The notes beneath the pieces are model-generated. The model was not told where the DNA came from. It did no database searches and saw only the letters and a program-made list of their open reading frames with translations. DNA of 47,798 nucleotides, from positions 1-47,798 of the IMG/VR virus record IMGVR_UViG_3300048591_000612. One strand, 5' to 3'. The translations under genes were made by a program, and so were the position numbers. This DNA is from a virus. Its lineage: Duplodnaviria > Caudoviricetes. Shown piece by piece: positions 31-47,798 of the stretch; within the stretch, counting starts at the first letter, position 1, and every line of letters begins with the position of its first letter.

Positions 31-290
<260 letters not shown>

Positions 291-327
291 CACAACAACC
301 ACACGATAACGTAACAACACAATACAC

Positions 328-633
328 ATGAACAACACGACACACATACCAACAACCGCCATTGCATCCAATGTTGCGAAACGTATCGTGGCAACATTTC
401 CCGACGTTGTTGGATCGTTCACGATACGTGCGCATCAACCAACACGCAACAACATCGGATCAACACATCATGTTGGATCACATGAATTGGTTCTACATTT
501 CATGCGTCAACATTCGGGCGCAACAATGTACACATTCCACATTGATAACAACGACGTTACGTCGATGGTTGTTGGGATGTTATCAACGGCATTGTTGGCA
601 TCACAACAACAATCACCATCAAACAACGCATGA
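328..633 (+). CDS. hypothetical early protein encoded almost without AG/CT
   Basis: 101 aa ATG ORF downstream of the promoter; only one CT (in CTAC) and no AG in the gene. Confidence 0.6.
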   Translation: MNNTTHIPTTAIASNVAKRIVATFPDVVGSFTIRAHQPTRNNIGSTHHVGSHELVLHFMRQHSGATMYTFHIDNNDVTSMVVGMLSTALLASQQQSPSNNA

Positions 634-733
634 TTATGTTAAAACTACTTCAAACCACACATAAACAATTACGCCATCACCATGCACGCATTTGAAGTTG
701 ATCCACGTAAATAAAACAACGTCATACACAGAC

Positions 734-760
734 ACCTACTGGACATCATGTCCGGTAGGC
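734..760. promoter_or_regulatory. dispersed palindrome copy 1 (GGACA-N3-TGTCC family)
   Basis: ACCTACT-GGACATCATGTCC-GGTAGGC. Confidence 0.85.
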
Positions 761-844
761 GTGTGTGTATCACAACAACGTGGTGCATACGTGACAACAG
801 GCAACCACATGGCCTTGCACATAAACAAAACAACACATACACAT

Positions 845-1219
845 ATGAAAACTTCAATCGTCGCCATGACAGTATTAAATGGCACAACAACAACGCACAT
901 TGTATGCACAGATATGCATATGGAACCATTCTCCATCGTCATGCACACAACAATGGGCATCATCAAACGACTAACGATCGTACCAATTGGAGATGAGGCA
1001 TACACAATACCTTTCACATCAAACGTGGAAGAACACATCATGATGAATGAAATCTTCGGACCACTCATGGCAAGGGATATGATGTGCGCATTATCTACAC
1101 TCATGGAACATGAGCTCATCGACGTTGATGTGGATAGTTTCCTCGAATGGTACAACATATTCATGATCATTGATGAGTATACGCAAAACAATCTATATAC
1201 GTCACACAACAACTCATAA
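845..1219 (+). CDS. hypothetical protein
   Basis: ORF 692..1219; ATG 845 (MKTSIV) preferred over TTG 692, start uncertain. Confidence 0.55.
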   Translation: MKTSIVAMTVLNGTTTTHIVCTDMHMEPFSIVMHTTMGIIKRLTIVPIGDEAYTIPFTSNVEEHIMMNEIFGPLMARDMMCALSTLMEHELIDVDVDSFLEWYNIFMIIDEYTQNNLYTSHNNS

Positions 1220-2381: not shown

Positions 2382-2695
2382 TCACAGTCATTAAGACACC
2401 ACCTCCCGGACATCATGTCCATTACATGGTTGTGGAGTATGTAGACGCATATAATAAACGTCACTTATATTCATACCCAACAACAAACCTGCCAGTACAG
2501 CAACTCCCAACACTGTTGGCAGAGGCTACATCAACATATAAAGTGAAGGGGTATATATCCTTCTACATTGAGACGGAACCAAAGGGTGCGGTGTTCACAA
2601 TACCTCATAGCATTGAGGAAGTGCCTTCAATGACCCTCTTCCGTATCATCACAAACGCACTATCAATCGCAACCAACTTAGATCGAATACCATGA
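2378..2695 (+). CDS. hypothetical protein
   Basis: ATGA-coupled ORF, 105 aa. Confidence 0.6.
   Translation: MITVIKTPPPGHHVHYMVVEYVDAYNKRHLYSYPTTNLPVQQLPTLLAEATSTYKVKGYISFYIETEPKGAVFTIPHSIEEVPSMTLFRIITNALSIATNLDRIP
2401..2427. promoter_or_regulatory. dispersed palindrome copy 2 (intragenic)
   Basis: ACCTCCC-GGACATCATGTCC-ATTACAT. Confidence 0.7.
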
Positions 2696-6805: not shown

Positions 6806-7084
6806 ATGACTGATTTCAAAAAATATCGTCGCACCCAGATAGCGGAGATGCGGCCCGTAACCGAAGCTGATATTCGTGCCTTTGAGCAAGACCAACATCT
6901 ACACGTTATGAAAGATCACGAGTTTAAGGTCTCTATATCAGACGCAGACCTCTCGAAGGGTTCGCCAAAGCTGGGCGACATGATCGCACGAAATCCAAAG
7001 AGCCACAACGACCAATGGCTTGTGGCGGAGCAATACTTCAAGGATAACTTTGAAGCGATCGGTGCGGGGGAGGAGCAACCATGA
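6806..7084 (+). CDS. phage hypothetical protein
   Basis: MTDFKKYRRTQIAEMRP...GDMIARNP...DQWLV pattern typical of small phage proteins. Confidence 0.65.
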   Translation: MTDFKKYRRTQIAEMRPVTEADIRAFEQDQHLHVMKDHEFKVSISDADLSKGSPKLGDMIARNPKSHNDQWLVAEQYFKDNFEAIGAGEEQP

Positions 7085-7437
7085 ACATCAATGACCTATT
7101 CTGCACACCCAAACAAGGGCGACGGCTTGCCGAGCTTGTGCCTGAACTGACGAGTGTATATATGCACGTTCATATGCACGAGAAGAACTCCCAAACGGTG
7201 TATTGGACGATAATGGAGACCCGCCTCTACAAATACTCGTGGCAACATAGGTTATCTTACCCCGCCCTCACGCTCCAAGAGTTGAGGGATGTGGCGAGCG
7301 AACACCACATGCACCGCCGATTCCGTCTCATGGGAGCTGAACGACTCGAAACGTGGCAAAAGGCTACGGCATCCATGACCGCCCCCGAACTCGCCGCTTG
7401 GGTGATCGAAAGATTGGAGGAACATAAAGATGGTTGA
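7081..7437 (+). CDS. hypothetical protein
   Basis: GGAGGAG RBS, ATGA overlap. Confidence 0.65.
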   Translation: MNINDLFCTPKQGRRLAELVPELTSVYMHVHMHEKNSQTVYWTIMETRLYKYSWQHRLSYPALTLQELRDVASEHHMHRRFRLMGAERLETWQKATASMTAPELAAWVIERLEEHKDG

Positions 7438-7567
7438 CTTCACCTCCCCCTTCACAGATGAGCACCTACAAACCCTCATGGGTGTAGGTATGATTGTATG
7501 GATCCTCCTGGGAATGATCCGTATAGTACAAACAATAATCCCTAACCATAAACGTAAAGACCTATGA
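7430..7567 (+). CDS. single-TM micropeptide (45 aa)
   Basis: GGAGG RBS; MVDFTSPFTDEHLQTLMGVGMIVWILLGMIRIVQTIIPNHKRKDL; ATGA overlap with the next gene. Confidence 0.5.
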   Translation: MVDFTSPFTDEHLQTLMGVGMIVWILLGMIRIVQTIIPNHKRKDL

Positions 7568-7941
7568 ACCTATACGACCGCATCACGAAAGATGTTGTAC
7601 TCCGATCGGAGCTGGATGATATGGCAACACGCCTTTTGAAAGCAACGAAGGAAGCACAGACATACAAAGCACGCAGTGAGGAGTTAAGAGAATCACTGCA
7701 TGACTCTGACGTCACACTACATAGGCTTACAACCTATGTAGATAACAACCCAGATAAGGATAGTGTCACACTACAGCACTTCCCTTTGAAGAGGTATGTT
7801 GTAGTACATAAGAAGACAAAAGAGATTGTCGCTAACCTAATGGCGACAAGACCTATCAACACACCTCATCTATTCTGTGTGGAAGTCGGCTTGAATGATG
7901 CATACACAGTTGGTGAGAAATATGAAGAGCTCCCAATATAA
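7564..7941 (+). CDS. hypothetical protein
   Basis: 125 aa ORF. Confidence 0.65.
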   Translation: MNLYDRITKDVVLRSELDDMATRLLKATKEAQTYKARSEELRESLHDSDVTLHRLTTYVDNNPDKDSVTLQHFPLKRYVVVHKKTKEIVANLMATRPINTPHLFCVEVGLNDAYTVGEKYEELPI

Positions 7942-8381: not shown

Positions 8382-8408
8382 ACCTTCTGGACACAATGTC
8401 CGATAGGT
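8382..8408. promoter_or_regulatory. dispersed palindrome copy 3
   Basis: ACCTTCT-GGACACAATGTCC-GATAGGT. Confidence 0.85.
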
Positions 8409-8441: not shown

Positions 8442-8792
8442 ATGGAAAATGTACAAACCAGTAAGGTTATTGACGGTAACAAAGTTGAAGTCGTAACCGA
8501 GTACAATTTTGGTGCGGATCTGAACGAAGCAGTATCTTTGTTTGGTGAGTCACTTGTGTATGAATACTTCAAAGCCAATGCAACAGTTCGCCTTCAGGCG
8601 TTCGTTCGCACAAGGATTGAAGCAGGGAAGTCAGCTGACGAGATCCAAGAGGAAGCAAACCAGTGGAAGCCTGGTGAAGTCAAGCGTTCTTCCAAAGATC
8701 CGAAAGAGGAAATCGCAAAGCAGTTCGCCAAGCTATCTCCAGAGCAGCAAGCTGCCTACCTGGAATCGCTTCGTGCGCAGTTGGGGGTGTGA
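8442..8792 (+). CDS. hypothetical protein in its own promoter-terminator unit
   Basis: CAGGAG RBS; 116 aa; C-terminal KQFAKLSPEQQAAYL helix. Confidence 0.85.
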   Translation: MENVQTSKVIDGNKVEVVTEYNFGADLNEAVSLFGESLVYEYFKANATVRLQAFVRTRIEAGKSADEIQEEANQWKPGEVKRSSKDPKEEIAKQFAKLSPEQQAAYLESLRAQLGV

Positions 8793-12663: not shown

Positions 12664-12889
12664 TGACCTTAAGAAAAGCATAAGCGAAATGAGTGATGAG
12701 GAACTAATGGAACAGATCCTCGAGTCACGTAAACGCAGACGTCAACCAAACCCTTCACGTAGGCAGAAGTCAGTAGCAGAGAAGAAAGTTAAGGAAGTGA
12801 CAAAGTCCCTCACTGACTTTCAAAAGATGCTCGCCATGATGCCGAAGGATCAGCAACTTGAAATACTAAAGAAACTTGAAACCTCATGA
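12650..12889 (+). CDS. small basic helical protein
   Basis: 79 aa, coupled to the ParB-MTase gene. Confidence 0.7.
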   Translation: MATIDDLKKSISEMSDEELMEQILESRKRRRQPNPSRRQKSVAEKKVKEVTKSLTDFQKMLAMMPKDQQLEILKKLETS

Positions 12890-14238
12890 ATGTACAAACA
12901 TTAGATATCAATTTGGTAGATGAAGGCAAGAGAAGTCGTGCAGACTATGGTGACATTGATGCACTTGTTCTCGATATTAAAGAGCATGGTTTATACCATC
13001 CTATTGTTGTGTATGAGAAGAAGGAAGGTGACGAGAATATCGAGGTGCCTTATCTACTCCTTGCAGGTGGTCGCCGCCTTAATGCGCTTCGCCGATTGGA
13101 GTTAACAGAGATACCTGCTCATATTGTCGAACGTGTCTTAACGGCAGAAGAGATCAAGGTGATCGAACTCCATGAAAACTTTGTGCGTAAGGATATGACA
13201 TGGCATGAGGAAGCCTCTCTCCGTAAAGAGATCTTCGATCTACAGGTGAAGATACATGGACCTATGCGCATGAAGGGTGGGGAGAAGATTGGTGTCTCTA
13301 CTGAGGACGTTGCAGATATGATGAACATAACTCGACGTCAGTTGACAAGGGATCTTGAACTCGCTGAGATGATTGAAAAGAATCCGGAGCTGAAGAATAG
13401 CGCATCAAAGGCTGAGGCTATTAAGAAGATTGAAGTAGCCAAAGAGGCAATGTTAAAAGAGGAACTCGCCAAGAGGCAGACTGCGAAGATGGCATCAAAG
13501 GGTACAGATCATGTACGTCGTAATCTCCTCAACGCATATATACACGGAGATGCCTTCGAGCACATGGAGCAATTCCCTGATAACTCATTCGACATCATTG
13601 AGATAGATCCACCGTATGCGATTGATCTCAAGGAGAAGAAGAAGTTGAAGGATGATAACCAAGAGCTCGACGACTACAATGAGGTGCCTATCAAAGAGTA
13701 CGTCGACTTCATGGATAGGACACTGACGCAAGCTGCTCGTTTGCTAAAGGACAGTGGTCACCTCATTGTGTGGTTTGCACCTGAACCTTGGTTCGAGGTT
13801 ATCAATAGACAGATTAGATCAAAGGGTCTTGACTGTACTCGCATACCTGGGATATGGAATAAAATCAAAGGGCAGACGATGCAACCTAACTATCGCCTCG
13901 GCAATGCTTATGAGATGTTCTTCTACGCACGTGGGGAGAGGGCTGTAATTGCAAAGGCAGGTACGAATAATGTCTTCACATTCCCTGGCGCTAATCCTGA
14001 TGATAAGATACACCCAACCGAACGTCCTATTGAAATGATACAAGCCGTACTTGAAACATTCGGCATGAAGGGTGCTCGTGTGCTTGTACCGTTTGCAGGT
14101 AGTGGGAATACAATCCTCGCTGCCCATAATGCAGGTATGACTGCTATTGGCTATGACCTCTCACAATCGTATAAGAAGTCATATGACCTACGTGTGCTGA
14201 CGAATGAGGCTCTTGCATTCTCATCGTATAAAAAGTAA
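12886..14238 (+). CDS. ParB-like domain + HTH + amino (N6A/N4C, class beta) DNA methyltransferase fusion
   Basis: ParB motifs GLYHPIVV, LLAGGRRL, ENFVRKD; HTH STEDVADMMNITRRQLTRDL; MTase IDPPY, HPTERP, VPFAGSG. Confidence 0.88.
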   Translation: MNVQTLDINLVDEGKRSRADYGDIDALVLDIKEHGLYHPIVVYEKKEGDENIEVPYLLLAGGRRLNALRRLELTEIPAHIVERVLTAEEIKVIELHENFVRKDMTWHEEASLRKEIFDLQVKIHGPMRMKGGEKIGVSTEDVADMMNITRRQLTRDLELAEMIEKNPELKNSASKAEAIKKIEVAKEAMLKEELAKRQTAKMASKGTDHVRRNLLNAYIHGDAFEHMEQFPDNSFDIIEIDPPYAIDLKEKKKLKDDNQELDDYNEVPIKEYVDFMDRTLTQAARLLKDSGHLIVWFAPEPWFEVINRQIRSKGLDCTRIPGIWNKIKGQTMQPNYRLGNAYEMFFYARGERAVIAKAGTNNVFTFPGANPDDKIHPTERPIEMIQAVLETFGMKGARVLVPFAGSGNTILAAHNAGMTAIGYDLSQSYKKSYDLRVLTNEALAFSSYKK

Positions 14239-14240
14239 CC

Positions 14241-14267
14241 ATCTACTGGACATTATGTCCGAAAGGC
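14241..14267. promoter_or_regulatory. dispersed palindrome copy 4, directly downstream of the ParB-MTase gene
   Basis: ATCTACT-GGACATTATGTCC-GAAAGGC. Confidence 0.85.
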
Positions 14268-14272
14268 AGGGT

Positions 14273-16711
14273 ATGATAACAACAGATAATGTTCCCAAAA
14301 GGATAGTAAATGGTGATGGTCCTTCCTCCGCAACGATCATGATTGTAGGGGATGCTCCTGGTTCTCAAGAAGAGATGAGAGGTAAACCATTCATCGGAGC
14401 TGCCGGTGATATCCTCAACGCTTGTCTTGAGAGAGCAGGTATCATCCGATCTAACTGTTACATAACAAACGTGGTTAAGGAACGACCACCTATGGGTAAC
14501 ATAGATACACTCATATCGTTCACAAAGGGTGTGAAGAAGTCAGCTGTTTATGAAACATATGAGAAGGCTTTGTATGCTGAGATAGATCGCATCAAACCTA
14601 ACGTGATAGTTGCAATGGGATCTGTCGCATTGTATGCAGTGACGAGGAAGACAAGTGTCATGAAGTATCGTGGATCAATCATGTCTTCATGTGAGGATAT
14701 CCCTGGATATAAGGTAATACCTGTGATACACCCAAGTGCTGCACTACGGCAGTACCTCTTACAACATATGATTGCGAATGATCTTAGGCGTGTACGTGAG
14801 CAGTCGAAGTTTCCGGAAGTTGTGTATAAACAACGTGAGTATATACTGAACCCATCCTTCGACGACTCACTCCGCTTCTTATCAGACTGCATGGGTTATA
14901 GTCGTGTTGCATTTGACATCGAGGTATCCAACATGGAAGTATCTTGCATATCATTTGCATATAGTGATAACCTCGCCATATCAATTCCCTTCATTCATAA
15001 TGGTCATGACTATTTCACACCATTACAAGAGGCAGAGATATGGAGGCGTATTGCTTTAATATTGGAGAATGAAAACATCGAAGCGCTTGGACAGAACACA
15101 ACCTTTGATACAACATTCCTCTTCAATAAGTACGGAATTAAGACAAAGAATATACAAGATACAATGGTGGCACAGGCTATCCTCTACCCTGATTATCCAA
15201 AGGGTCTTGATTTCATAACAAGTATGTACACTGACATCCCTTATTACAAGGATGAAGGTAAGCATCGTATCGTACATGGAGGTGGTTCGGATGAATCATT
15301 CTGGTTGTACAATGCGAAGGACTCTATTGTCCTAATTGAAGCATTCCCTAAACAACTCGCTGCCTTAACGGCACAAGGTAACCTTGACACATACCGTAAT
15401 CAGGTTAGGTTAATCGAACCCCTGTTGTACATGACACAGAGGGGAATGAAGATGGACTATGAGGGATTGGAGAAGGCAAGTAAGGATGCAGAGAAGCGCC
15501 TTGCTGAACTTGAGCTTGAGTTGGAGAAGATATGTGGGGAACGTATTAACCTTGCAAGTCCAAAACAACTCGGGGATTACTTCTATAAGAAGCTCGGTAT
15601 AAAGCCGTACCTGAAAGCTGGCAAGCCTACAACAGATGAAGGCGCATTGAAGCGTCTATCAAGACGAGGCTTCAAGGAAGCAGAAATCATAATGGAGCAT
15701 CGTACACTTGCCAAACTGAATGGTACATACTTCAAGATGAAACTGGATGAAGACAAGCGCCTTCGTACAGCCATGAATCCTGTTGGTACACGTACTGGTC
15801 GCCTGTCCTCAAGTCAAACAATATTCGGTACAGGAGCCAATGTGCAGAATCAACCTCCAATCATGAAGAAGTTCATGCTCTGTGATGAGGGGTATGTTGC
15901 ATATGAGGTTGATCTTGGGCAAGCGGAGAATCGTGTTGTTGCATACCTTGGGCCTGATTTGAAAATGATAGATGCGTTTGAAAGTGGCGCTGATATTCAC
16001 CGTCGTACAGCATCCCTCATATTCGGTACACCTGAAGATCAGATCAGTGATGAGGCTGGGTCAAGTGATATTGCAGGTGGGCAGTACAGTCAAAGGTTCT
16101 GGGGGAAGAAAGCTAATCACTCCCTTAACTACGGCATGGGATATAAGAAGTTTGCATATACCCTGGAGATTGCAGAGAATGAGGGTAAGTTTATTGTTGA
16201 CAGATATCATCAAGGTTACCCTGGTGTTCGGCAAATGCATTCTTGGATTGTCAACCAATTAAGGAAAGATCGCACCCTTACAAATCTATTCGGAAGGCGT
16301 TATGTATTCCTCGATAGATGGGACGACACCCTTATGACTGATGCATACGCCTTTATGCCACAGAGTAGTATTGCTGATAAAGTAAACAGGCATGGGCTCA
16401 TGTATGTATACTATAATCAAGACACATTCAAGCACGTGGAAATATTGAATCAGGTACACGATTCGATCCTCTTCCAAATCCCACTCACACAGAGTTGGGA
16501 GTATCATGCATCTTGCTTACTGGCTTTGAAGAATAGCCTTGAGCAACCAATGCACTTTCGTGGTCGTGACTTCAGTATCCCTGCAGATATGAAGATGCTT
16601 CCAAAGAATATGAAGGATGGGATTAACCTTAAGAAAGTCCCGGAAGATGTTAATGAATTTGCCACTATATTAAAGGAGTCTTATGAGTCATACTATAATA
16701 AAAAGGTGTGA
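14273..16711 (+). CDS. family A DNA polymerase with N-terminal uracil-DNA-glycosylase-like domain and 3'-5' exonuclease
   Basis: UDG-like GDAPG...PFIG, NVVKERPP, HPSA; exonuclease FDIE, NTTFD, YNAKD; polymerase TGRLSS, DLGQAE, KKANHSLNYG, QVHDS; ATG 14273 preferred over 14204. Confidence 0.92.
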   Translation: MITTDNVPKRIVNGDGPSSATIMIVGDAPGSQEEMRGKPFIGAAGDILNACLERAGIIRSNCYITNVVKERPPMGNIDTLISFTKGVKKSAVYETYEKALYAEIDRIKPNVIVAMGSVALYAVTRKTSVMKYRGSIMSSCEDIPGYKVIPVIHPSAALRQYLLQHMIANDLRRVREQSKFPEVVYKQREYILNPSFDDSLRFLSDCMGYSRVAFDIEVSNMEVSCISFAYSDNLAISIPFIHNGHDYFTPLQEAEIWRRIALILENENIEALGQNTTFDTTFLFNKYGIKTKNIQDTMVAQAILYPDYPKGLDFITSMYTDIPYYKDEGKHRIVHGGGSDESFWLYNAKDSIVLIEAFPKQLAALTAQGNLDTYRNQVRLIEPLLYMTQRGMKMDYEGLEKASKDAEKRLAELELELEKICGERINLASPKQLGDYFYKKLGIKPYLKAGKPTTDEGALKRLSRRGFKEAEIIMEHRTLAKLNGTYFKMKLDEDKRLRTAMNPVGTRTGRLSSSQTIFGTGANVQNQPPIMKKFMLCDEGYVAYEVDLGQAENRVVAYLGPDLKMIDAFESGADIHRRTASLIFGTPEDQISDEAGSSDIAGGQYSQRFWGKKANHSLNYGMGYKKFAYTLEIAENEGKFIVDRYHQGYPGVRQMHSWIVNQLRKDRTLTNLFGRRYVFLDRWDDTLMTDAYAFMPQSSIADKVNRHGLMYVYYNQDTFKHVEILNQVHDSILFQIPLTQSWEYHASCLLALKNSLEQPMHFRGRDFSIPADMKMLPKNMKDGINLKKVPEDVNEFATILKESYESYYNKKV

Positions 16712-24937: not shown

Positions 24938-24962
24938 GTTTCGGACATCATGTCCAGAAGGT
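24936..24962. promoter_or_regulatory. dispersed palindrome copy 5
   Basis: ACGTTTC-GGACATCATGTCC-AGAAGGT; fills the whole intergenic gap. Confidence 0.85.
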
Positions 24963-30000: not shown

Positions 30001-30027
30001 ACCTGGTGGACATTATGTCCGATAGGT
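30001..30027. promoter_or_regulatory. dispersed palindrome copy 6
   Basis: ACCTGGT-GGACATTATGTCC-GATAGGT. Confidence 0.85.
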
Positions 30028-35049: not shown

Positions 35050-35076
35050 GTCTGATGGACATAATGTCCGAAAGGT
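35050..35076. promoter_or_regulatory. dispersed palindrome copy 7
   Basis: GTCTGAT-GGACATAATGTCC-GAAAGGT; fills the TerL-portal gap. Confidence 0.85.
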
Positions 35077-37803: not shown

Positions 37804-38901
37804 TCAACAACCAGTATACCAACCTCTTTTAGAGAGGTCAGCTATTCGCGTAAGTGCGTTGTCATACAACTCAGCACCTCTTTCAAGACTGTACTTCCGC
37901 CGAGCATTCTCAGCTATGATTCGCCTATCTACATCATTAAATGTGCGAACCTTCTGCACAGCCTCAATCCAATCTAACAACGTCTTACACCTGAAACCAT
38001 TCTGCCCATGCTCAACAGTTTCAGTGAAAGCACCGTAATCGACAGAGAGAAGTGGCGTACCACATAGCATACCTTCCACACCTGAGCCACCAAAAGGTTC
38101 GACGAAGAGTGTAGGCATTACTGTGCACATTGCACTTCCCAACAAACGTGATCTGTCACGACCATGTACAGGTGGGATATAACGCAACTTATCGTACTTA
38201 TCAAGGTATGGCTGAGGATCGCCTTGACCGCAGATATATACCTTATTATACACTCGCTGTGCTATCTCACCAACTGTATCAATTCCTTTATTCTGTGTGA
38301 TACGACCGAAGAAGAGGATACTATTATCATGCTCTGTCGATACATACCACTCACTTACATCAAACGTATTAGGTATGACGAAGTGGTAATTAGACCCATG
38401 CGCCTTCTCTTTGCCAGCATGGTAGTGCATCCATGCGTATGACTCATATATGCGATATGGGAGGAAGCACTCAGGATAACCAATGCCAGGCTCTACATGA
38501 TATGCGTCTGGAAATTCTTGCACAAGACGTGGGTGTGCAGGACCGAAGTGGTGGAGAATGATATCCCCTTTCTGCACCCGAGTCTTCATCGCACGAATGA
38601 GGCGATCTTCGAATAAGGTATGCTGAGGTGTTCCAACTGCACCATAGTTACCATGAAACCCCTTGTTATCACCAATCGGGCAGTGCTGTGCGATCTCTTC
38701 CTCTGATAACATTGGAACAATCTCAAACGATCCATCATGATACTTCGACCCAGCTCCATTGGTGTAGTCGATAAGAGGCCAATCCATCAACTGCGCTATA
38801 CGTACGAATCGTACAACTTTCTGTGTGAAGGCACAGTGGCTATATACGTCCGTTGGGAGTGTGTGGAATATCCCAATGCTATGTAATGTAGGCTTTCTCA
38901 T
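37804..38901 (-). CDS. glycosyltransferase (GT4 / GT-B fold)
   Basis: FFGRITQNKG and EPFGGSGVEGMLCGTP (E-X7-E), GAFTETV. Confidence 0.85.
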   Translation of the reverse strand: MRKPTLHSIGIFHTLPTDVYSHCAFTQKVVRFVRIAQLMDWPLIDYTNGAGSKYHDGSFEIVPMLSEEEIAQHCPIGDNKGFHGNYGAVGTPQHTLFEDRLIRAMKTRVQKGDIILHHFGPAHPRLVQEFPDAYHVEPGIGYPECFLPYRIYESYAWMHYHAGKEKAHGSNYHFVIPNTFDVSEWYVSTEHDNSILFFGRITQNKGIDTVGEIAQRVYNKVYICGQGDPQPYLDKYDKLRYIPPVHGRDRSRLLGSAMCTVMPTLFVEPFGGSGVEGMLCGTPLLSVDYGAFTETVEHGQNGFRCKTLLDWIEAVQKVRTFNDVDRRIIAENARRKYSLERGAELYDNALTRIADLSKRGWYTGC

Positions 38902-39521
38902 ACTCCACTCCTATCATAAATACCAGCAAAGAAAGGTCCGTGCATACACGTCTCGGCATTGTCATAGTTACCCCTTACAAGAAGGCGATTAACCATACCC
39001 TGCTCCTCAATGAATCGGTGCATATCAACTGCATTTAATGTGTGCAAGTGTCCAGTATATGTTGGGATATCTACCCATTCAAATATACGCAGACGCTTAC
39101 CATACGCACACGCTTTCTGTAGGATCAAATAAGGATCCATTACGTGTTGAAGGCAGTTATAGATCCACACTTCATCAAAGGCAAATGCCTGTGTGTCAAT
39201 GTCAGGAAGTTCCTCAGCAGGATGAATGATCCTACTGATACCTCTCTGCTTATATACGTCCTCATAGTGGTCGTACTCAATCGGATCAAGTGCTACACAC
39301 TGCGTAGGGTTCTTCGCATACGATAAGAGCATAGATGTAGGACCTGAACCTATATCAAGGATCATTCCATCTACGCCATTTGTAATATCAAGAAGACCAG
39401 CAACGACATCACCTTTACGCTTCTCAGCGCGGATGCCTTCGTCACCTATAGACAACCACCAGCCCTTTTCGAACTGTTGTGCGTCCTGCCATTCTTGTGT
39501 TCTATCTTTCATTTGTTCCAT
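38898..39521 (-). CDS. class I SAM-dependent methyltransferase (small molecule/glycan type)
   Basis: ILDIGSGP, ALDP, FDEVWIYNCLQHVMDP. Confidence 0.85.
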   Translation of the reverse strand: MEQMKDRTQEWQDAQQFEKGWWLSIGDEGIRAEKRKGDVVAGLLDITNGVDGMILDIGSGPTSMLLSYAKNPTQCVALDPIEYDHYEDVYKQRGISRIIHPAEELPDIDTQAFAFDEVWIYNCLQHVMDPYLILQKACAYGKRLRIFEWVDIPTYTGHLHTLNAVDMHRFIEEQGMVNRLLVRGNYDNAETCMHGPFFAGIYDRSGV

Positions 39522-39552: not shown

Positions 39553-42387
39553 TTAAACTTTAATTGCTATCATATGTGATCCTGCATAAACACTTATCTG
39601 GTTTGTACCAGAAGCACCTCTTGCTTGGAGTTTTATACTTCCACCACTACCACCAGTCTGTATTACCATAGAGCATGATAAGACCTGAGTAAAAGGATCA
39701 CCTGGTACGAAATCAACATTAGGACCAATATCACCGCTATCAGCTGCTATATAATTAGTGAAGGCACAGACATAATTACCAGATAACCTTCCCAGTATAG
39801 ATGTAATAGAAACCCCACCGCTCCTACCAGTCATTGAATAACCTAATAATGGATAAGAACTACCGCTTGTTATTCTATGGGCTACTTCAAACTTTATTAT
39901 ATAAGTAGAATTAGCAGCAAGTCCAGTTATCGCAAAGCCACTCACATCAGAATACCCACTGCTGTTTGTATTATACGTAGTAGAAATATTCCTATACATC
40001 AACGCATTAGGCCCTTGTGGGCCTGTAGCTCCCTCAGGGCCTGTTGCTCCCGTTTCACCTACTCCTGTTTCACCCTGTACCCCAGTTGCTCCTATGATAC
40101 CAGTCGCACCCACAACACCTGTTGCTCCGCTAACACCAGTAGCGCCAGTCACTCCTGTAGAACCGGTTGCCCCTACTCCAGTCGCACCTGTTGTACCTAC
40201 GCCTGTAGCTCCAGTAACACCAGTAGGACCTGTCTGACCGGTAGCTGATGCAATAATCTCAAATACTTGATCGCCTTCACTCCAAGAAGAGTCACCGCCG
40301 ACATACTCGACAGCCCAATAAAAGCCGCCAAATCCTGTCTGCGTGTTACCTGTGATGCGGAAAATAGATCCACGAAAACGAATCTGAGAACCAGCAAAAA
40401 TTGCACCTGGCACAAGGTTGATAAAGTCGGCATACCCTGACGCATCATTTGAATGGATGACTACAAACACAGTGTCGGCAGGCGTGTCGGCAAGCGACGA
40501 TCCGCCCGTCTCAAGGAACATACACTGACCGTTGCTGATCGGATTGGCATACGCTCCGACCTTATCCCTGACAAACGACCTCGTTCCCCTGTGCTCGTAG
40601 AGTGAGCGCTTGAGGATGTTCGGATTGATAGCATGGGTCGTGTTCGTGCCTTCTTTGGCATCGGTGAGCGTGGCAATATTGACAGGACCCGCAATACCAG
40701 TTGGACCTGTCTGACCGATAGGTCCAGTTGCCCCAGTCACACCTTGTGTACCAACCCCTGTGGCACCTGTTACACCAGATTCACCAATAACACCAGTGCC
40801 TCCAGTAATACCAGTCGCACCCGTTATACCTATACCGGTAGGTCCAGTCTCACCAACAGCTCCAGTTGCTCCCGTGATACCTATGCCAGTTGCCCCTTGT
40901 ATGCCGGTCGCCCCTGTGATGCCAATTCCCGTAGCTCCGGTTATCCCAATACCAGTCGCCCCCTGCGTACCAGTGGCGCCAGTTATACCAACCCCAGTAG
41001 CACCTGATACGCCAATAGGCCCAGTCTGACCTACAACACCCGTAGCACCAGTTATACCAATACCTGTTGAACCTGTTAATCCAGTTGCCCCAGTGACCCC
41101 AACTCCTGTTGCCCCAACTGTGCCTGTTGCCCCAGTTTGACCAATAGTCCCAGTGGCTCCAACAGTGCCAACTCCAGTCGCGCCTTGGATGCCTGTAGCA
41201 CCCGTTGTTCCAACTCCGGTCGCACCAACAGTCCCAACTCCCGTTGACCCTTGGATACCCGTTGCTCCGACTGTGCCAGTAGCACCTGTGATTCCGGTAG
41301 CCCCAGTTTCCCCATCGACTCCAGCACCTGTCGCTCCTTGCGTGCCTGTAGCTCCAACGACTCCAGTAGCCCCTGTAACTCCGACTCCCGTAGGACCAGT
41401 TTGCCCAATGCTACCTGTCGCTCCAACCGTACCAGTTGCTCCTGAAGTACCAATACCGGTAGCCCCTGTAAGTCCAGTAGCACCAGTTGTACCAGTCGCT
41501 CCAACGTCTCCCATGAGAGCAATGTACTGCCAGTTATCCTGCCAAGAAGCTCCAACACCTGGCTCATTCGAGGCTCCAGCTGTGTGAGCAAGGATACAAC
41601 GGTATGAAGATCCGTCATTTTGTACGGCATCGTCTATATCATATGATGTTGAACTTGTCCATGTACCAAGCCATGAGAGTGATCCACCTGGGATACCCGT
41701 TGCACCAAGAGGTCCAGTCGATCCAGTTAAACCTGTTGCACCTGTTATACCAACCCCCGTAGCACCGGTTTCACCCGCTCCTGTGGCTCCAGTAAGACCT
41801 GTTGCTCCACTTACTCCTATAGCACCCGTTGCACCTGTAATACCTACACCAGTGCTCCCTTGTATGCCTGACGCACCAGTTGCGCCCTGAACTCCTGTGG
41901 CTCCCGTTTGACCGATGCCTGTAGCGCCAACTGTACCAGATGCGCCTTGTAGACCTGTAGCCCCAATGACGCCTGTTGCACCTGTAGTGCCTTGTGTACC
42001 AATGCCAGTAGCTCCAGCTGATCCTGTCGCTCCCACTGATCCCGAAGGTCCAGTCGCTCCAGTAGATCCCACTCCCGTCGGTCCTGTTTGCCCTTGTACA
42101 CCTGTTGCTCCAGTTATGCCGATTCCAGTTGCTCCTGTTACACCAGCGCCTGTTGCGCCTATTGCTCCCGTAGCTCCTACAACACCACTCGGTCCTGTAG
42201 CGCCAGTTGTTCCTGCTCCTGTTGCCCCCGCAACACCAGTAGCACCAATCACCCCAGTTGCGCCGGTAGGACCTTGCGCCACATTCGTAAGGACATTAAC
42301 ACGAATAGTCGTCTCTGTGACGCCTACATTCGTGACCTCTGTCGATACATTGATAAGGGTATTATTTGGTGATACAGTTATAAGCAT
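39553..42387 (-). CDS. collagen-like fibre protein with G-X-T repeats and a CBM5/12-like insert
   Basis: Three GAT/GVT/GIT/GPT repeat blocks; [27 protein letters not shown]...W insert; non-repetitive C-terminus. Confidence 0.85.
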
Positions 42388-42774: not shown

Positions 42775-42801
42775 ACCTTTCGGACATCGTGTCCATCAGA
42801 T
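42775..42801. promoter_or_regulatory. dispersed palindrome copy 8
   Basis: ACCTTTC-GGACATCGTGTCC-ATCAGAT; fills the intergenic gap. Confidence 0.85.
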
Positions 42802-42804
42802 GAG

Positions 42805-43251
42805 TTAAACAGTATCTATATCCCCAGAGACAATCTGTATGTCGAGAGAAAGCACTTTGAGTGTAAGACCCTCAACAATATCAACAACAGGTGCGACATC
42901 GCCCTCAGCAAACATGTGCCAGGTTCCAGACTCACTCGCTGTGTTATCATCACGATACTTTATCGTAAGCGCACGAATAGAGCCGAAGCCGCCACTCGGT
43001 GCGGTGAACTCAAGTATGTCAAGACCATCCTGGGAGAGTACCATTGTATCATCTCCATCAGCATAAGTCCACTCATACACTGTACCATTAGATGCAGCGT
43101 TACCCACATACTTAATACCATTCGCACTTGTTATCTCCACATTATTCGTATTACGAAGACCGAAGCGGAACACCCTATTTATAACATTAGCATCGAGATT
43201 GTCCCAATGAAACAGTACACTGATATATCCTGGAGATGCAAAATGTGCCAT
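42805..43251 (-). CDS. virion/fibre structural protein
   Basis: 148 aa beta-rich; weakly resembles the C-terminal domains of its upstream neighbours. Confidence 0.55.
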   Translation of the reverse strand: MAHFASPGYISVLFHWDNLDANVINRVFRFGLRNTNNVEITSANGIKYVGNAASNGTVYEWTYADGDDTMVLSQDGLDILEFTAPSGGFGSIRALTIKYRDDNTASESGTWHMFAEGDVAPVVDIVEGLTLKVLSLDIQIVSGDIDTV

Positions 43252-43252
43252 G

Positions 43253-44206
43253 TTATACGATCCTTACACCTGAGCCAACTTGGTCAACGTATGGTACGTC
43301 ACCTGTGTTGTATGTTCCGTAACTTGCTGCTGTAACCTGGAATGTTACATCACCTGTATTACCCCCAGGCACTGTTGTGTTGCCACTCGTACTATTCGTA
43401 TTGATCCGCACGAAGTATGGCTTAGCATACCCATTATCTGCAATATTGATCTGAGGGAATGTTACAGATGTTTGTAGGTAAACCTTAGAATCATATTGCC
43501 ACAGCTTCACTGGCTGACGTGCATAGCCTGTATAATTCAACTCAGCGCCAACATCATCATGAAGGGACATCCAATATACAGTGCCATCTGTCAGTGTATT
43601 CGCCAGTGACTGTGTGACAGTATCACCTGTAACAATATCAATAAGGGATGACGCAAGTGCAGCGTATGGGAAACCTCCAAAGAAGCGTACAATCAGATCT
43701 TGTATTTGAAATGTCTGATTTGGATCAATGTGCGGAACTGGATATAGCGGTATGCGAGCGAAGAGTAACCATGTAGGATCGTGTGCTGGACTAGTCTTCA
43801 CACGTGTATGAATCCTTACATTGTTAACATCTCCCCAATCAGCAGTCTTCGGATCAAAGATCATTGGACTTGTACTGTTGATATTGGCGAGGCGTATAAT
43901 ACTATTCGCCAGACCGAAGTCAGCACGTCTCCAGAGCCAAGGATCAGATGGACTCTCGTTCTCTATATCACTAAAGTCTACACAGTCATATGTGATTGTA
44001 TCAACAGATCCAGCAACACCACTCGTCTTCTGTGAATCATTATTCCAAAGGGTGAAGCGCCATTGACGCAGTGCCTCTCCTGGGCTGTCGGTAAGAACAT
44101 CCCTTGGCTTCGTCATGCCTTTATATATCAAAAGCGGGAGTCCGCTATTGTGGATGATAGGCATTGATGCGCTCCTTAAAGTCTTCCGTTGCAGGTTGCT
44201 TCCCAC
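43253..44206 (-). CDS. virion/fibre structural protein
   Basis: C-terminal TVYWMSL...ELNYTGYARQPV...VTFP domain; true start may be 44164 or 44116. Confidence 0.6.
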   Translation of the reverse strand: MGSNLQRKTLRSASMPIIHNSGLPLLIYKGMTKPRDVLTDSPGEALRQWRFTLWNNDSQKTSGVAGSVDTITYDCVDFSDIENESPSDPWLWRRADFGLANSIIRLANINSTSPMIFDPKTADWGDVNNVRIHTRVKTSPAHDPTWLLFARIPLYPVPHIDPNQTFQIQDLIVRFFGGFPYAALASSLIDIVTGDTVTQSLANTLTDGTVYWMSLHDDVGAELNYTGYARQPVKLWQYDSKVYLQTSVTFPQINIADNGYAKPYFVRINTNSTSGNTTVPGGNTGDVTFQVTAASYGTYNTGDVPYVDQVGSGVRIV

Positions 44207-44345
44207 TATTGATCAGATCCAAGAGCATTGGATGATGCCTCACTGGATCGGTCATGACCATATCTATTGCCTCACCATCCGCGTTCATGATAAACGCAGA
44301 GAAGTGTACAACTGCACCTGTGTTATGTTTCTGTTCACTTTGCAT
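44145..44345 (-). CDS. small hypothetical protein
   Basis: 66 aa, GAGG RBS, TAATG-coupled to the upstream gene. Confidence 0.5.
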   Translation of the reverse strand: MQSEQKHNTGAVVHFSAFIMNADGEAIDMVMTDPVRHHPMLLDLINSGKQPATEDFKERINAYHPQ

Positions 44346-45532
44346 TATATTGCCTCAACTTCCACGTCACCTGAATTAAATTGAAGTACGTAGTTCAGTG
44401 GCACATCAAACGTGGCTATGCTCATGGCTATATATTGTGTTCCACCTGTGGATGCACTGAATATACGTACTTCATCAATATCGTCCCACTGTGATGTAGC
44501 AAGCGGGAAGGTTGCATCTGTGTTACTATCGACTTTCTCACCACTTGTTATGTAAATGGCACCGAAGCCGATAGATGCACGAGCGTAACCATTCCCACTT
44601 ACTTCAACACCACTACTGTATAGTGCGAGATATACTGTATTATTCTCAATGTTTTGCATTGCAAGGTTTTCACCACTTCCAAGTCCGACGTCTTTGTAAA
44701 CTGCCTTATACATGAATGTGACTTCATCCTTATCAAATACGATACCATGATGTAACACAGCAATCCCAGCACCATCCTTTCTCACTTGAACAATCTTATC
44801 ACTTAGCGTAACAGCTATCATGTGAGAACCAATCTTAAAAGGTACTCCAGCTTCAATGAAGTACCAAATACCACTATGAAGAACAACAGATGCATCTGTA
44901 TTACGCAGAGCGTATATACCTTTTGTTGCGGCGGGAAGTGATATTATATGCCCACCTATACTGAATGTATGCACCACTGGTGTTTTATAAACAAGTCCAG
45001 CGTGCACAACGGTTTTCGCATCTACATTCCTACGTGCGACTATTTCACTTGTCACACTATCCTTCGATATAATGTGAGCGCCAATACTGTACAGTTTTCC
45101 TTTTTCAATATGTGACACTGTGCCACCATGTAATAAGGATATTCCTACAGCCTCACGCCCAACGTAGATAATCCGATCAATATCAATAGAGGAAAGAACA
45201 TTAGCCGTTAGGCTATAGACACGTCTTGGTGGTGTGAACCAGTGAGCGAAGGAGTGGATGATCGCTTTTGCGTGTATGTGATAACGACCTTTGATTCTCG
45301 GATAAGGATCCCAATAGGTGCACTCGTAGTCGTACAGACACTCAAATGGTTGGACACAAGTGAATGATTCGGATAACGTGTAAGGTGTAGCGCACGTGAA
45401 CGATTCATCGACTGTGTATGGGAGTGAGAGGGTATACGGTGTGTTACAGAGGTACGCCTCATTGCACGTGAAGGACGCGCTGCACGTAAAGGCTTGAGAA
45501 CAGGTGAAGAGGAAATCATTGCAGTTAAACAC
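44345..45532 (-). CDS. virion/fibre protein with Cys hexapeptide repeats
   Basis: N-terminal [FY]xCxxx repeats; C-terminal TVYLALY...EVSGNGYAR...TFPLATSQW...STGG domain. Confidence 0.65.
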   Translation of the reverse strand: MFNCNDFLFTCSQAFTCSASFTCNEAYLCNTPYTLSLPYTVDESFTCATPYTLSESFTCVQPFECLYDYECTYWDPYPRIKGRYHIHAKAIIHSFAHWFTPPRRVYSLTANVLSSIDIDRIIYVGREAVGISLLHGGTVSHIEKGKLYSIGAHIISKDSVTSEIVARRNVDAKTVVHAGLVYKTPVVHTFSIGGHIISLPAATKGIYALRNTDASVVLHSGIWYFIEAGVPFKIGSHMIAVTLSDKIVQVRKDGAGIAVLHHGIVFDKDEVTFMYKAVYKDVGLGSGENLAMQNIENNTVYLALYSSGVEVSGNGYARASIGFGAIYITSGEKVDSNTDATFPLATSQWDDIDEVRIFSASTGGTQYIAMSIATFDVPLNYVLQFNSGDVEVEAI

Positions 45533-45535
45533 ATC

Positions 45536-46096
45536 TTATTTCTCCCCTTCATCTGTCCATTGCATATTACCATCTCCATCCCACTGCTCTGATACAGGTG
45601 TTCCATCTGGTACGATAATAGCGTCAGCAAGGACACCTGCACGACGCATACGCTCAACTGCTGCCTCCTTAATCGCAGCAATTTTATCATCATCCATCTT
45701 CTTATGATCCACTTGCACACGTTTAACCGCAGCATGACCCGCACGATCGAGGATGTCACGAGCTGCCGTAACACGAGTTTCCGGCTTCACATTACCATCG
45801 AGCATTACTTCCTTCAACAACATTGCTGCGATTGGAGCAAGCTTCGTGATCTCAGATGCAACCTCCATTGTTTCAACATCCAGGGAGGCGTTCATATTCG
45901 CTAACTGCGACTGCACAATCGGACTGTACTTCGTATTCACAACCGTTGCTTCTGATACGCCCAGTTCAGCGGCAATATCCTTATTGCTCATCCCCAATAC
46001 GATGCGACGGATAATATCCTTATGAACCTGATTCATCTTCTTCAGCGAAAATGATCGGTCATTTGTGATAAGACTTTGCCCAGTTGCTGTTTCCAC
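45536..46096 (-). CDS. terminase small subunit-like HTH protein
   Basis: GMSNKDIAAELGVSEATV HTH and RVTAARDILDRAG motif; first gene of the late operon. Confidence 0.65.
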   Translation of the reverse strand: METATGQSLITNDRSFSLKKMNQVHKDIIRRIVLGMSNKDIAAELGVSEATVVNTKYSPIVQSQLANMNASLDVETMEVASEITKLAPIAAMLLKEVMLDGNVKPETRVTAARDILDRAGHAAVKRVQVDHKKMDDDKIAAIKEAAVERMRRAGVLADAIIVPDGTPVSEQWDGDGNMQWTDEGEK

Positions 46097-46160
46097 GTCT
46101 TCGTAGGTGAGAGGGTTTTATGCGCTGATAGGTGTGGCAAATGTGCATTTACCTAATACT

Positions 46161-46189
46161 AATATACAACAATCCATATATGGATGCAA
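46161..46189 (-). promoter_or_regulatory. sigma70-like promoter heading the structural operon
   Basis: Minus strand TTGCAT (46189-46184), 17 bp, TATATT (46166-46161). Confidence 0.65.
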
Positions 46190-46239
46190 CAACCGATGCA
46201 AAATAATTTACCACAATTACACGTAGAACAAACACACAA

Positions 46240-46266
46240 ACCTATCGGACATTATGTCCATTGCGT
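46240..46266. promoter_or_regulatory. dispersed palindrome copy 9
   Basis: ACCTATC-GGACATTATGTCC-ATTGCGT. Confidence 0.8.
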
Positions 46267-46404
46267 GCGTTGCGTTAAACGTGTGATGTATGTGAAAGGT
46301 ATGCCACGTGTGGCAAAATGTGGTATTTTATAAAAATCATCTGCACCAAAATTGTGCTTGTGTGGGTGTGGCGTGGATCGTTTTTCCCCAACGTCCCCCC
46401 CGTT

Positions 46405-46462
46405 GGTTAATTACGTTAACTAATCATTTTCACGCAACAACGGTTAATTACGTTAACTAACC
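46405..46462. repeat. pair of 21-bp palindromes GGTTAATTA-CGT-TAACTAAYC
   Basis: Copies at 46405-46425 and 46442-46462. Confidence 0.85.
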
Positions 46463-46521
46463 ATTTCGTGACCATCGCAACATTGCGGATAAAATACTCC
46501 TTAATCCGTAATATGTACAAC

Positions 46522-46555
46522 AAAAAACGGTTGTACGTTTTATCATACAACCGTT
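46522..46555 (-). terminator. intrinsic terminator of the AG-free gene
   Basis: Perfect 10-bp stem AACGGTTGTA/TACAACCGTT followed by a T run on the minus strand. Confidence 0.7.
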
Positions 46556-46577
46556 GTTGTTCAACCGTTCACGTTGT

Positions 46578-47192
46578 TTACGTTGTCGGTTTCCATGTTT
46601 GCATTATTGTTTCGATCATCGCATCGTTCATACCGTTTTTACGACACATATCAATAAAAATTTCGCGTTGTTGTTCGGGCGTCAATTTATCGTACATTTT
46701 ATCAATTTTGTTCATGGTTGCATATTGTGGTTTCGGAATTGCATCAACAACGTTTGTATTTACAACCGTTGGTAATTTTCCCGCCGTTTCACGCAAAACA
46801 CGTTGTTCACGTATATTTGTTGGTTTCGTTGATAATGTACATACACCACCAACCGTACATCCATCGAAACGATTGTTTATCGTTGTTGTTTGTTGTCGGG
46901 TTTCGTCCAACACGTTTTTTCCGTGTTTGTCCAATATGAATTTTCCGTCGTTGTCACGTTTATACGGTGTTGTGGTTGCGGTTGTGGATAACGTGCCGAT
47001 TAATTTGGCATCGTTTGCCGGGAAACGATGTTCAACGTTATCAATTGTGACAACAACGAATAAATCGTTATTGTTGTTGGTTGTGGTTGTTGCGTTGTTG
47101 TCGGTGGATGCGTTGGTTGTGTTCATGTTGTTGATTGTTTGGGCGTTGTTGTTGTTGTCGTTGGTTGCGTTGTTGGTTGTTGTCGTTTCCAT
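46578..47192 (-). CDS. hypothetical early protein (204 aa, Thr/Asn-rich N-terminus) encoded with no AG/CT
   Basis: ATG 47192 (METTTTNN) lies downstream of the 47310-47282 promoter; terminator follows the stop. Confidence 0.7.
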   Translation of the reverse strand: METTTTNNATNDNNNNAQTINNMNTTNASTDNNATTTTNNNNDLFVVVTIDNVEHRFPANDAKLIGTLSTTATTTPYKRDNDGKFILDKHGKNVLDETRQQTTTINNRFDGCTVGGVCTLSTKPTNIREQRVLRETAGKLPTVVNTNVVDAIPKPQYATMNKIDKMYDKLTPEQQREIFIDMCRKNGMNDAMIETIMQTWKPTT

Positions 47193-47281
47193 CGTTGTTT
47201 TTCCGTTGTGTTTTTGTTGTTGTTGTGGCGTACATATATTGCACATATACGCATTGTGCCGTTGTTTTTTGGGCACATTCC

Positions 47282-47310
47282 AATATACACAATTTTGTGT
47301 ATCCGCACAA
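47282..47310 (-). promoter_or_regulatory. sigma70-like early promoter
   Basis: Minus strand TTGTGC, 17 bp ending TGTG, TATATT. Confidence 0.55.
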
Positions 47311-47394
47311 CATATACCACAAACAAACAACATTTATTTTCAACCGTTGTTGTTGCGTACGTTGTTGTTGGATGCGCCACCGTACACGGAAAAT

Positions 47395-47459
47395 GATTAG
47401 TTACGTTAATTAACCATTTCACGCACATTGGGCCAAATGGTTAGTTACGTTAATTAACC
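47395..47459. repeat. pair of 21-bp palindromes GRTTAGTTA-CGT-TAATTAACC
   Basis: Copies at 47395-47415 and 47439-47459. Confidence 0.85.
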
Positions 47460-47572
47460 GTTATCGTTGTTGACCCAACGACCGCAACAACATTTATGTT
47501 CGCTAACTGCATGATGCCGGTGTAACAATGTGTTTGTTGGTGTAGTTGTTTGCATCGTATGTTGTGTATGTG

Positions 47573-47793
<221 letters not shown>

Positions 47794-47798
47794 CAAAA

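Follow-up and report, generated by a model that had tools for sequence, protein, structure and literature searches.

The apparently complete genome of 47.8 kb of an uncultured podophage analysed here (IMG/VR virus record IMGVR_UViG_3300048591_000612; its 47,798 nucleotides, opened at a poly(A) tract, are referred to below as the window) carries, next to the packaging gene for the terminase small subunit (TerS; 45536..46096, - strand), a zone of about 2.5 kb that has been purged of the dinucleotide AG and its complement CT. The purge overrides codon choice in the two genes that the zone includes and is kept in an independent strain. The same genome encodes a fusion of a ParB N-terminal domain, a helix-turn-helix (HTH) and a methyltransferase, together with nine copies of a palindrome at which this fusion likely loads. 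We give roughly even chances to the reading in which the desert is caused by the phage's own mark, with a site-loaded methylase and a target-free zone that would enter the cell first. The fuller picture, that of a self-addressed, sliding methylase with a two-letter target and of first-entering genes rewritten without that word, is advanced more tentatively.

An AG/CT desert under selection

The desert comprises a left part (46125..47740) and an early-side part (77..960), which together contain 41 AG/CT against 302 expected (observed/expected ratio, O/E, 0.14), the remaining genome standing at 1.00. The depletion affects both strands and culminates in an 899-nt core without any AG or CT (46501..47399), when the longest AG/CT-free run across 200 shuffles spans 79 nt. 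The low-AG zone that had been noticed in the original prediction is thus real. Its edge beside the TerS start is abrupt, with AG ratios of 0.88 outside and 0.27 inside, and its early side recovers gradually (0.31, 0.74, 0.79 and 0.92 out to 4.2 kb), the gradient past the early-side part extending to about 3.1 kb. TAG/CTA make up 22 of the 41 residual sites, as compared to 16% of sites in the genome body, so that the weakness at TAG proposed originally holds as a description of the sequence.

The zone had also been equated with the early/origin region, and since two recoded genes lie inside, it cannot be mere non-coding DNA of that kind. The first of them, geneX (46578..47195, -; 205 aa from the ATG used, longer starts being possible), contains no AG/CT, where 56±5 are expected for the identical protein under genome codon usage. 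The second is the first open reading frame (ORF) of the early strand, ORF328 (328..633, +; 101 aa), with 1 AG/CT against 30±4 expected in the same manner. As controls, the fusion gene and the DNA polymerase A (PolA) gene show the AG/CT counts expected from codon usage. No protein family was matched by geneX or ORF328 in family scans. A homologue of geneX with 40% identity (P0122) was found, its DNA being absent from the metagenome and viral contigs searched, and positional orthologues exist in relatives (best E 3e-6).

An independent run (X1) provided a contig that spans the desert and is about 89% identical to the window over 43010-46259. Among the 40 listed substitutions (of 74) between the two deserts, with contexts read by hand, one creates a CT, against 10.7±2.6 expected and a minimum of 2 in 3000 simulations. 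That single substitution sits outside the geneX ORF, in the loop of an intrinsic-terminator-like hairpin directly after the gene (46526..46555, -). An assembly artefact, low-complexity sequence or a local mutational bias might still be invoked from the break of the contig at a poly(A) run and the partly low-complexity nature of geneX. Nonetheless, the zone is found again in an independent sample, where the substitutions steer clear of AG/CT, geneX has the homologue and positional orthologues just described, and the loss is not explained by any single substitution route. We consider this explanation, already largely refuted, to retain a negligible probability: the desert is under selection, and artefact and chance are excluded for practical purposes. 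Outside X1, a metagenome scan with TerS returned 29 loci, of which two had a TerS match; a desert was seen in none.

The core of the desert is closely bounded by two copies of an 18-bp quasi-palindrome to the left of geneX (46407..46461) and two inverted copies to its right (47397..47458), the latter with tolerated TAG sites; the quasi-palindrome had zero exact matches in viral contigs. The poly(A) tract at which the assembly opens runs from 47741 to 47789 and continues at 36-76 (+ strand). Long A/T tracts were observed also in seven relatives (at 43246 in Desulfofustis phage MD01, 39286 in G022, 29474 in G042, 17665 in G054 and 23985 in G057, and at contig ends in G048 and G010), in six of them 1.1-2.1 kb upstream of TerS; such homopolymer tracts are a frequent assembly break and possibly part of the terminus or origin. 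A sigma-70 promoter scan of 45900-47798 yielded chance-level results only.

These elements bear on the notion that the desert is a replication or packaging element in which AG/CT would be intrinsically harmful, for instance at the starts of a DnaG-type primase, and which the quasi-palindromes and the poly(A) tract would organise. Start sites of DnaG-type primases contain CT, and both the tight fit of the four quasi-palindromes around the zero-AG core and the presence of long A/T tracts at the same place in relatives are in agreement with this idea, as is a mild AG dip that extends clade-wide, even to a genome (G022) whose fusion lacks catalytic motifs. However, an intrinsic need should be felt across the clade, yet depth ranges from 0 to 0.98, and the purge runs through two coding sequences and on both sides of the tract, fading over 3 kb. 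A replication or packaging element seems therefore an improbable cause.

The gene inside the core presents a further peculiarity. In the window and in X1 alike geneX has the same orientation, on the late strand and here flanked by inverted quasi-palindrome pairs, while the orthologues of relatives are encoded by the early strand, an arrangement that suggests a past or switchable inversion. A distant geneX paralogue (8442-8792, +) occurs in the majority of relatives, with blastp matches in 20 of 38, and more by hidden Markov model; in relatives this paralogue is not consistently AG-poor.

A ParB-HTH-methyltransferase fusion

The fusion gene (12886..14238, +), a core gene of the clade, encodes 450 aa that comprise ParB-N with its CTPase fold, the HTH, a long helix and an amino-methyltransferase of the beta class. 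The Pfam domains ParB_N (PF02195; residues 3-98, above cut-off) and N6_N4_Mtase (residues 236-431) and the placement of the DPPY catalytic motif (residues 241-244; 13606..13617, +) ahead of PFAGSG (402-407), which is the beta-class order, bear out the DPPY-type methyltransferase of the original prediction. The AlphaFold model has a mean predicted local distance difference test score of 92.5 and contains an HTH-like helix pair at 139-165. Foldseek matches it to CcrM (E 1e-15) and N4CMT (E 2e-15), with template modelling scores by target of up to 0.84; this likeness to the beta-class fold of CcrM, N4CMT and M1.HpyAVI does not separate makers of N6-methyladenine (m6A) from makers of N4-methylcytosine (m4C). 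The fusion matches also Noc and ParB, by sequence and by fold, and nine NCBIfam models, all of them under cut-off (the best, PRK13699, with 69 bits against a cut-off of 244). Invariant positions in 107 homologues include G61, R63, R64, E94, E97, N98 and R101 in the ParB part and D241 and G405-S406-G407 in the methyltransferase. With its motifs intact, the fusion is predicted to be an active methyltransferase whose product would be either m6A or m4C.

The fusion is present in 40 of 40 related records chosen by their primase gene and in 74 of 79 primase loci, the other five ending upstream of its position, and its homologues form 1087 clusters at E<=1e-20. The tree of the methyltransferase domain, a quick and poorly resolved version, places the window outside every starred group. 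Two relatives depart from the common architecture. In G022 (L092 2857-4092), ParB-HTH is followed by a C-terminal domain without DPPY and FxGxG; this genome has a separate Dam-like gene (6901-7587) and eight palindromes, and GTAC is wholly absent from it (O/E 0.0). In ctLwi270 (L317 561-1850), ParB-N is joined to a methyltransferase with motif I before DPPY, to all appearances a fusion that arose independently and that likewise precedes PolA.

Dispersed palindromes as candidate loading sites

The palindrome GGACAnnnTGTCC occurs exactly nine times in the window (log10 p -18.8), at 741..753 (copy 1, within the shoulder on the early side of the desert), 2408..2420, 8389..8401, 14248..14260 (copy 4, ten bases past the stop codon of the fusion), 24943..24955, 30008..30020, 35057..35069, 42782..42794 and 46247..46259 (copy 9, in the left shoulder of the desert, 151 nt upstream of TerS). 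Judged from their flanks, copies 1 and 9 face in opposite directions, as had been proposed; the idea that they bracket the zone is only approximate, because the two lie about 120 and 200 nt inside it. A palindrome copy is found at most 700 nt upstream of TerS in 17 of 32 clade rows, the window counted.

Dispersed palindrome families (log10 p <= -10) were detected in 28 of 45 genomes with the ParB fusion and in none of six relatives without it, whose best families reach log10 p values of -8.8 and -9.4; a wider scan found families in 34 of 47 genomes. Across 23 genomes the spacing of the copies is more even than random (combined p 2e-11, a value that ignores kinship). Furthermore, the similarity between motifs follows that between recognition helices (partial rho 0.32, permutation p 0.003, n=30), and to a lesser extent that between methyltransferase domains (rho 0.17). 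The loading sites suggested originally thus gain indirect support from co-occurrence with the fusion, even spacing and co-variation with the HTH. The recognition helix is not singled out, since other ParB segments co-vary with the palindrome about equally or better (0.19-0.36), a point that detracts from the reading. The conservation of eight sites in G022 despite the loss of catalytic motifs implies that the sites go with the ParB part. Taken together, these patterns make it probable that the palindromes are the sites of the fusion's HTH. A search with the extended window palindrome gave 19 matches, and at none of them did tblastn detect any of 13 window proteins. In most genomes, the window included, the outer positions of the palindrome read CT...AG (or AG...CT) and the inner letters vary, and the palindromes may thus contain the enzyme's own target.

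AG signals across related phages

Two separate statistics, one local and one genome-wide, point to AG among the ten dinucleotides. In the counts that follow, G006 (a duplicate of G005) and G002 (partial) were mostly left out, and tests upstream of TerS also excluded genomes in which TerS was not called or the zone was truncated; G022, MelJY34, ABTNL3, ctMlz233 and ctLwi270 were set apart as divergent in the release, dip-contrast and flank tests, and p values for comparisons of relatives ignore kinship. Locally, 30 of 38 relatives have AG as the most depleted of the ten dinucleotides over the 2.6 kb upstream of TerS, and once codon usage is corrected for, the ORFs in that position are poor in AG in 34 of 40 (median 0.88). 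The dip is deeper in genomes with the fusion (median 0.635, n=38) than in those without it (0.70-0.84, n=5; p 0.006), and a mild dip is seen in G022, whose fusion lacks catalytic motifs.

The second statistic rests on restriction sites, for a genome methylated at AG/CT need not avoid those that contain this word, which may thus be released from avoidance. Among the 21 palindromic hexamers that 46 fusion genomes avoid most when pooled, not one of the 16 that contain AG appears. Taken singly, 38 of 44 fusion genomes avoid AG sites less than they do other palindromes, a proportion reached neither by unrelated viral loci (14 of 57) nor by low-GC loci (14 of 33) or relatives without the fusion (three of six). 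The difference is significant against both unrelated loci (p 6e-8) and no-fusion relatives (p 0.012), and AG is the top released word with respect to unrelated controls (p 7e-5). In the window itself, strong avoidance affects none of 13 AG palindromes and 12 of 40 others (p 0.02, uncorrected). The agreement of the two statistics on a single word out of ten provides the main support for an AG/CT target, and we regard it as somewhat better than an even bet that the target of the enzyme contains AG/CT.

Several results weigh against this interpretation. The window shows zero net release of AG sites (0.68 vs 0.70); the indirect support for the target proposed originally comes from the zone upstream of TerS and from the clade-wide release. 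AG does not rank first among released words when the six relatives without the fusion are the reference (p 0.095), and in 14 further fusion loci release is weak (8/14, median 0.04). Both signals appear where they would not be expected: G022, without catalytic motifs, combines a dip (z -3.8) with strong release (0.86 vs 0.58), and the differently ordered methyltransferase of ctLwi270 is accompanied by both. The Asp that normally precedes PFxGSG is mostly Val in the fusion family. In the non-coding portion of the clade-wide dip GA is as low (0.87), and ribosome-binding sites may therefore be a confounder; host taxonomy may likewise confound all avoidance statistics, because hosts may differ between groups. 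No comparable desert was seen in 52 other records, where the longest AG/CT-free run is of 174 nt (G053), and the depth of the desert correlates neither with the identity of the methyltransferase to that of the window (rho -0.03) nor with restriction-site release (rho 0.05). The deep desert is confined to this lineage.

The deepest AG dips among relatives (0.30-0.44; G056 at 44.1 kb, G042 at 28.6 kb, G053 at 40.2 kb and G034 at 22.0 kb) are scattered across the methyltransferase tree. No comparable desert of another di- or trinucleotide was present in the first 17 relatives, and none of 79 gene families tested tracks desert depth (best p 0.025, uncorrected).

The phages iggy and CAjan, both of which carry dPreQ0 at GA, with iggy modifying 97% of its own GA sites (PMC10484667, in the portion available), served as controls. 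In iggy, the genome-wide minimum of GA (ratio 0.20, z -5) lies at the early/late junction, in a GA/TC trough at L413 29900-30628 (MN029011.1 about 60000-60628) of which the available portion of PMC10484667 makes no mention that we could find; CAjan has no GA trough at that junction. A self-mark can thus produce a trough but need not, which fits the uneven depth within our clade. On the other hand, in neither phage did the release test pick up the GA mark (0.80 vs 0.78 in iggy, 0.73 vs 0.75 in CAjan), and its sensitivity is for this reason unproven. The absence of a trough in CAjan and the failure of the release test must be added to the points against a self-mark.

The identity of the marked base was approached through the letters that flank restriction sites. 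T after C-ending sites stands at 1.09 in the clade and at 0.84-0.86 in controls, and G after A-ending sites at 0.98 and 0.91, respectively. The m6A product originally assumed is consistent with DPPY, but this flank test hints that, despite DPPY, the marked base might be the C of CT, as m4C. In the 14 further fusion loci (two of the extra loci having been dropped as duplicates), the flank signal is not above its own null, again to the detriment of the proposal. Weighing motif against flanks, we lean modestly towards N6-adenine over N4-cytosine.

Proposed mechanism and competing explanations

In the mechanism that we favour, the fusion would load on the nine palindromes spread round its own genome and methylate the two-letter word AG/CT on nearby DNA, weakly in TAG/CTA. 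By analogy with ParB biology, CTP-gated loading and sliding could confine such an unselective methylase to phage DNA and spare the host chromosome. At the early/late junction, a stretch that is probably the first into the cell or the first to be read would have been purged of AG/CT so as to arrive unmarked. Since the enzyme is clade-wide and the deep desert is not, it is most likely the host that determines what the mark costs. Our preferred candidate for this cost is a host methyl-directed (type IV-like) nuclease that would act on the mark until early proteins neutralise the attack; a second option is slower first-round transcription of marked DNA. The original hypothesis, which united a genome-wide mark and a modification-free desert, is thus partly supported: the GA trough of iggy offers a precedent, while the enzyme occurs throughout the clade without a deep desert.

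The inverse arrangement, raised as an alternative in the original prediction, has to be considered as well. The desert might be an escape from a host system that reads unmodified AG words on incoming DNA, such as a very short-site nuclease or a CRISPR (clustered regularly interspaced short palindromic repeats) system with an NAG-type protospacer adjacent motif (PAM), and that acts before early anti-defence proteins are made, the methyltransferase having another target or being incidental to the desert. The sharp late edge and graded early side of the desert fit time since entry, depth is lineage-specific and unrelated to methyltransferase sequence, and G022 dips without catalytic motifs. Moreover, the genome-wide AG ratio of the window (1.00) is below that of most relatives (mostly 1.1-1.4), and the window still avoids AGCT, CTNAG and AGNCT (0.79, 0.75 and 0.73). 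To our knowledge, however, no host system has a bare AG as its target, and this explanation leaves the clade-wide release of AG-containing restriction sites unaccounted for. All four NAG contexts are missing from the 899-nt core, and ATG, a strong type I-E PAM in Escherichia coli, is enriched (1.51). Precedents do exist for the pressures involved, since the leading regions of Murciavirus are free of type I restriction-modification motifs (PMC12455610, in part) and one relative is targeted by the CRISPR of its own host (PMC10370329, in part). On balance, we deem a host reader of AG the main rival, though less likely than a self-mark.

A bulkier mark, made at AG/CT by another or additional enzyme, would explain why the deep desert is found in this lineage only. 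The obvious candidates are a glycosyltransferase (37804-38901, -) and an S-adenosylmethionine (SAM)-dependent methyltransferase (38898-39521, -) for which no homologue was found in 38 relatives, and the low genome-wide AG of the window resembles that of GA in iggy (0.79). Both genes adjoin a collagen-like fibre gene (39553-42387, -) in the late structural block, though, and by this position they are likely to serve virion glycosylation. No base-hydroxymethylating gene was found in the window, and no family among the 79 tracks depth. We rate another enzyme as quite improbable. Under the favoured scenario, in which the fusion itself lays the mark, the window yields a concrete prediction: an AG/CT mark that is weak in TAG/CTA and depends on a known palindrome. 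For the closest named record by primase gene, Desulfofustis phage MD01, no single-molecule real-time sequencing data were found in the available text of PMC9296519 or in two of its supplementary files.

Genomic context

The early and replication genes of the window, including exonuclease, Sak4, the ParB fusion, PolA and primase, are carried by the + strand, and the structural genes (SU10-like portal and capsid, TerL and TerS) by the - strand. The PolA gene (14204-16711, +) has an N-terminal family-4 uracil-DNA glycosylase domain. By their primase gene, cultured relatives are distant, and include PaP2/119X-like, Microcystis, Vibrio, Caulobacter and Polaromonas phages. A search for the host in genome contigs returned full-length matches only on contigs that are short or of phage size and that were binned with various taxa. 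For the genome termini of cultured relatives, a literature search yielded nothing relevant. There were zero Rfam matches across the window, and scans of window ORFs, many of which are small and without any family, revealed no restriction-endonuclease family. Within 1000-46100, CGCG, CTAG and GGCC are strongly avoided (O/E 0.21, 0.21 and 0.35) and AACGTT, CAATTG and GAATTC are absent, which we read as the fingerprint of host restriction enzymes.

Comparison with known systems

The domain fusion described here is catalogued yet uncharacterised, and both low-specificity phage methyltransferases and site-free leading regions were already known. Fusions of a phage ParB-CTPase fold to N6_N4 methyltransferases (PF02195+PF01555) have the same domain pair, are frequent in phages and have been suggested to play an anti-defence role (PMC12704722). 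As far as the accessible text of that study goes, some ParB-fold fusions bind ATP or GTP instead of CTP, and no binding site, target motif or genome signature is given for the fusions; that of the window comes with an HTH, with candidate sites and with a putative target of two letters. ParB-methyltransferase fusions are thus common in phages, and we found no target or mechanism assigned to them in print. ParB-parS and Noc-NBS clamps share with the fusion a ParB-N with GxRR and ENxxR residues, an HTH and several palindromic sites, which for the fusion are candidates. They differ in that the fusion has a C-terminal methyltransferase and candidate sites that vary between phages and are spread evenly round a 48-kb genome, and in that no ParA family was found among the 59 window ORFs scanned, so that the partner of a ParABS system is missing from them.

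M.EcoGII, of the beta class, is like the fusion a phage-borne orphan methyltransferase with the DPPY...FxGxG order; it shields against many restriction enzymes, and its unregulated expression slows host growth (PMC5778455 and PMC7544214, in the parts available). Hia5, Hin1523 and Nma1821 are low-specificity phage adenine methyltransferases with AB or BA targets (PMC3299994, in part), likewise orphans that give protection from many restriction enzymes, but Hia5 is not of the same class as the fusion, because it belongs to the alpha class (PMC5778455). Unlike the fusion, enzymes of the M.EcoGII and Hia5 types have no ParB loader and, in these partial accounts, are not described as restricted in cis. 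If our reading is true, the window illustrates a way for a phage to employ an almost nonspecific methylase and yet leave its host unmarked, and a site-loaded, spreading methylase might be put to use as a tool.

A coupling of a ParB-fold protein to a DNA-modifying enzyme is found also in phage thymine dioxygenases, where the ParB acts as an activator of its own, has no obvious DNA-binding domain and can dispense with its nucleoside triphosphate residues (PMC13229309, in part). The dPreQ0 of iggy and CAjan is similarly a phage self-modification at a dinucleotide, made through other chemistry and another enzyme (DpdA); the trough of iggy is partial and of about 0.6 kb, and CAjan has none (PMC10484667, as available). 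In the literature consulted, mostly outside subscription papers, no palindrome-loaded phage methylase, AG/CT target or dinucleotide-free entry zone was found. Should the desert indeed stem from a self-mark, it would indicate that dense self-marking is costly enough to recode genes, and from the sequence of such deserts alone one could read the targets of phage DNA-modifying enzymes that are still uncharacterised; should the host-reader explanation be true instead, the desert would point to an unknown defence that reads a two-letter word. Leading regions free of restriction sites are a known feature of T5 and T7. In Murciavirus, selection likewise acts on the first-entering end, where it purges the longer site of a host enzyme and not a two-letter word (PMC12455610, in part). 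Unlike the site-free leading regions known so far, the purge of a two-letter word in the window reaches the recoding of genes.

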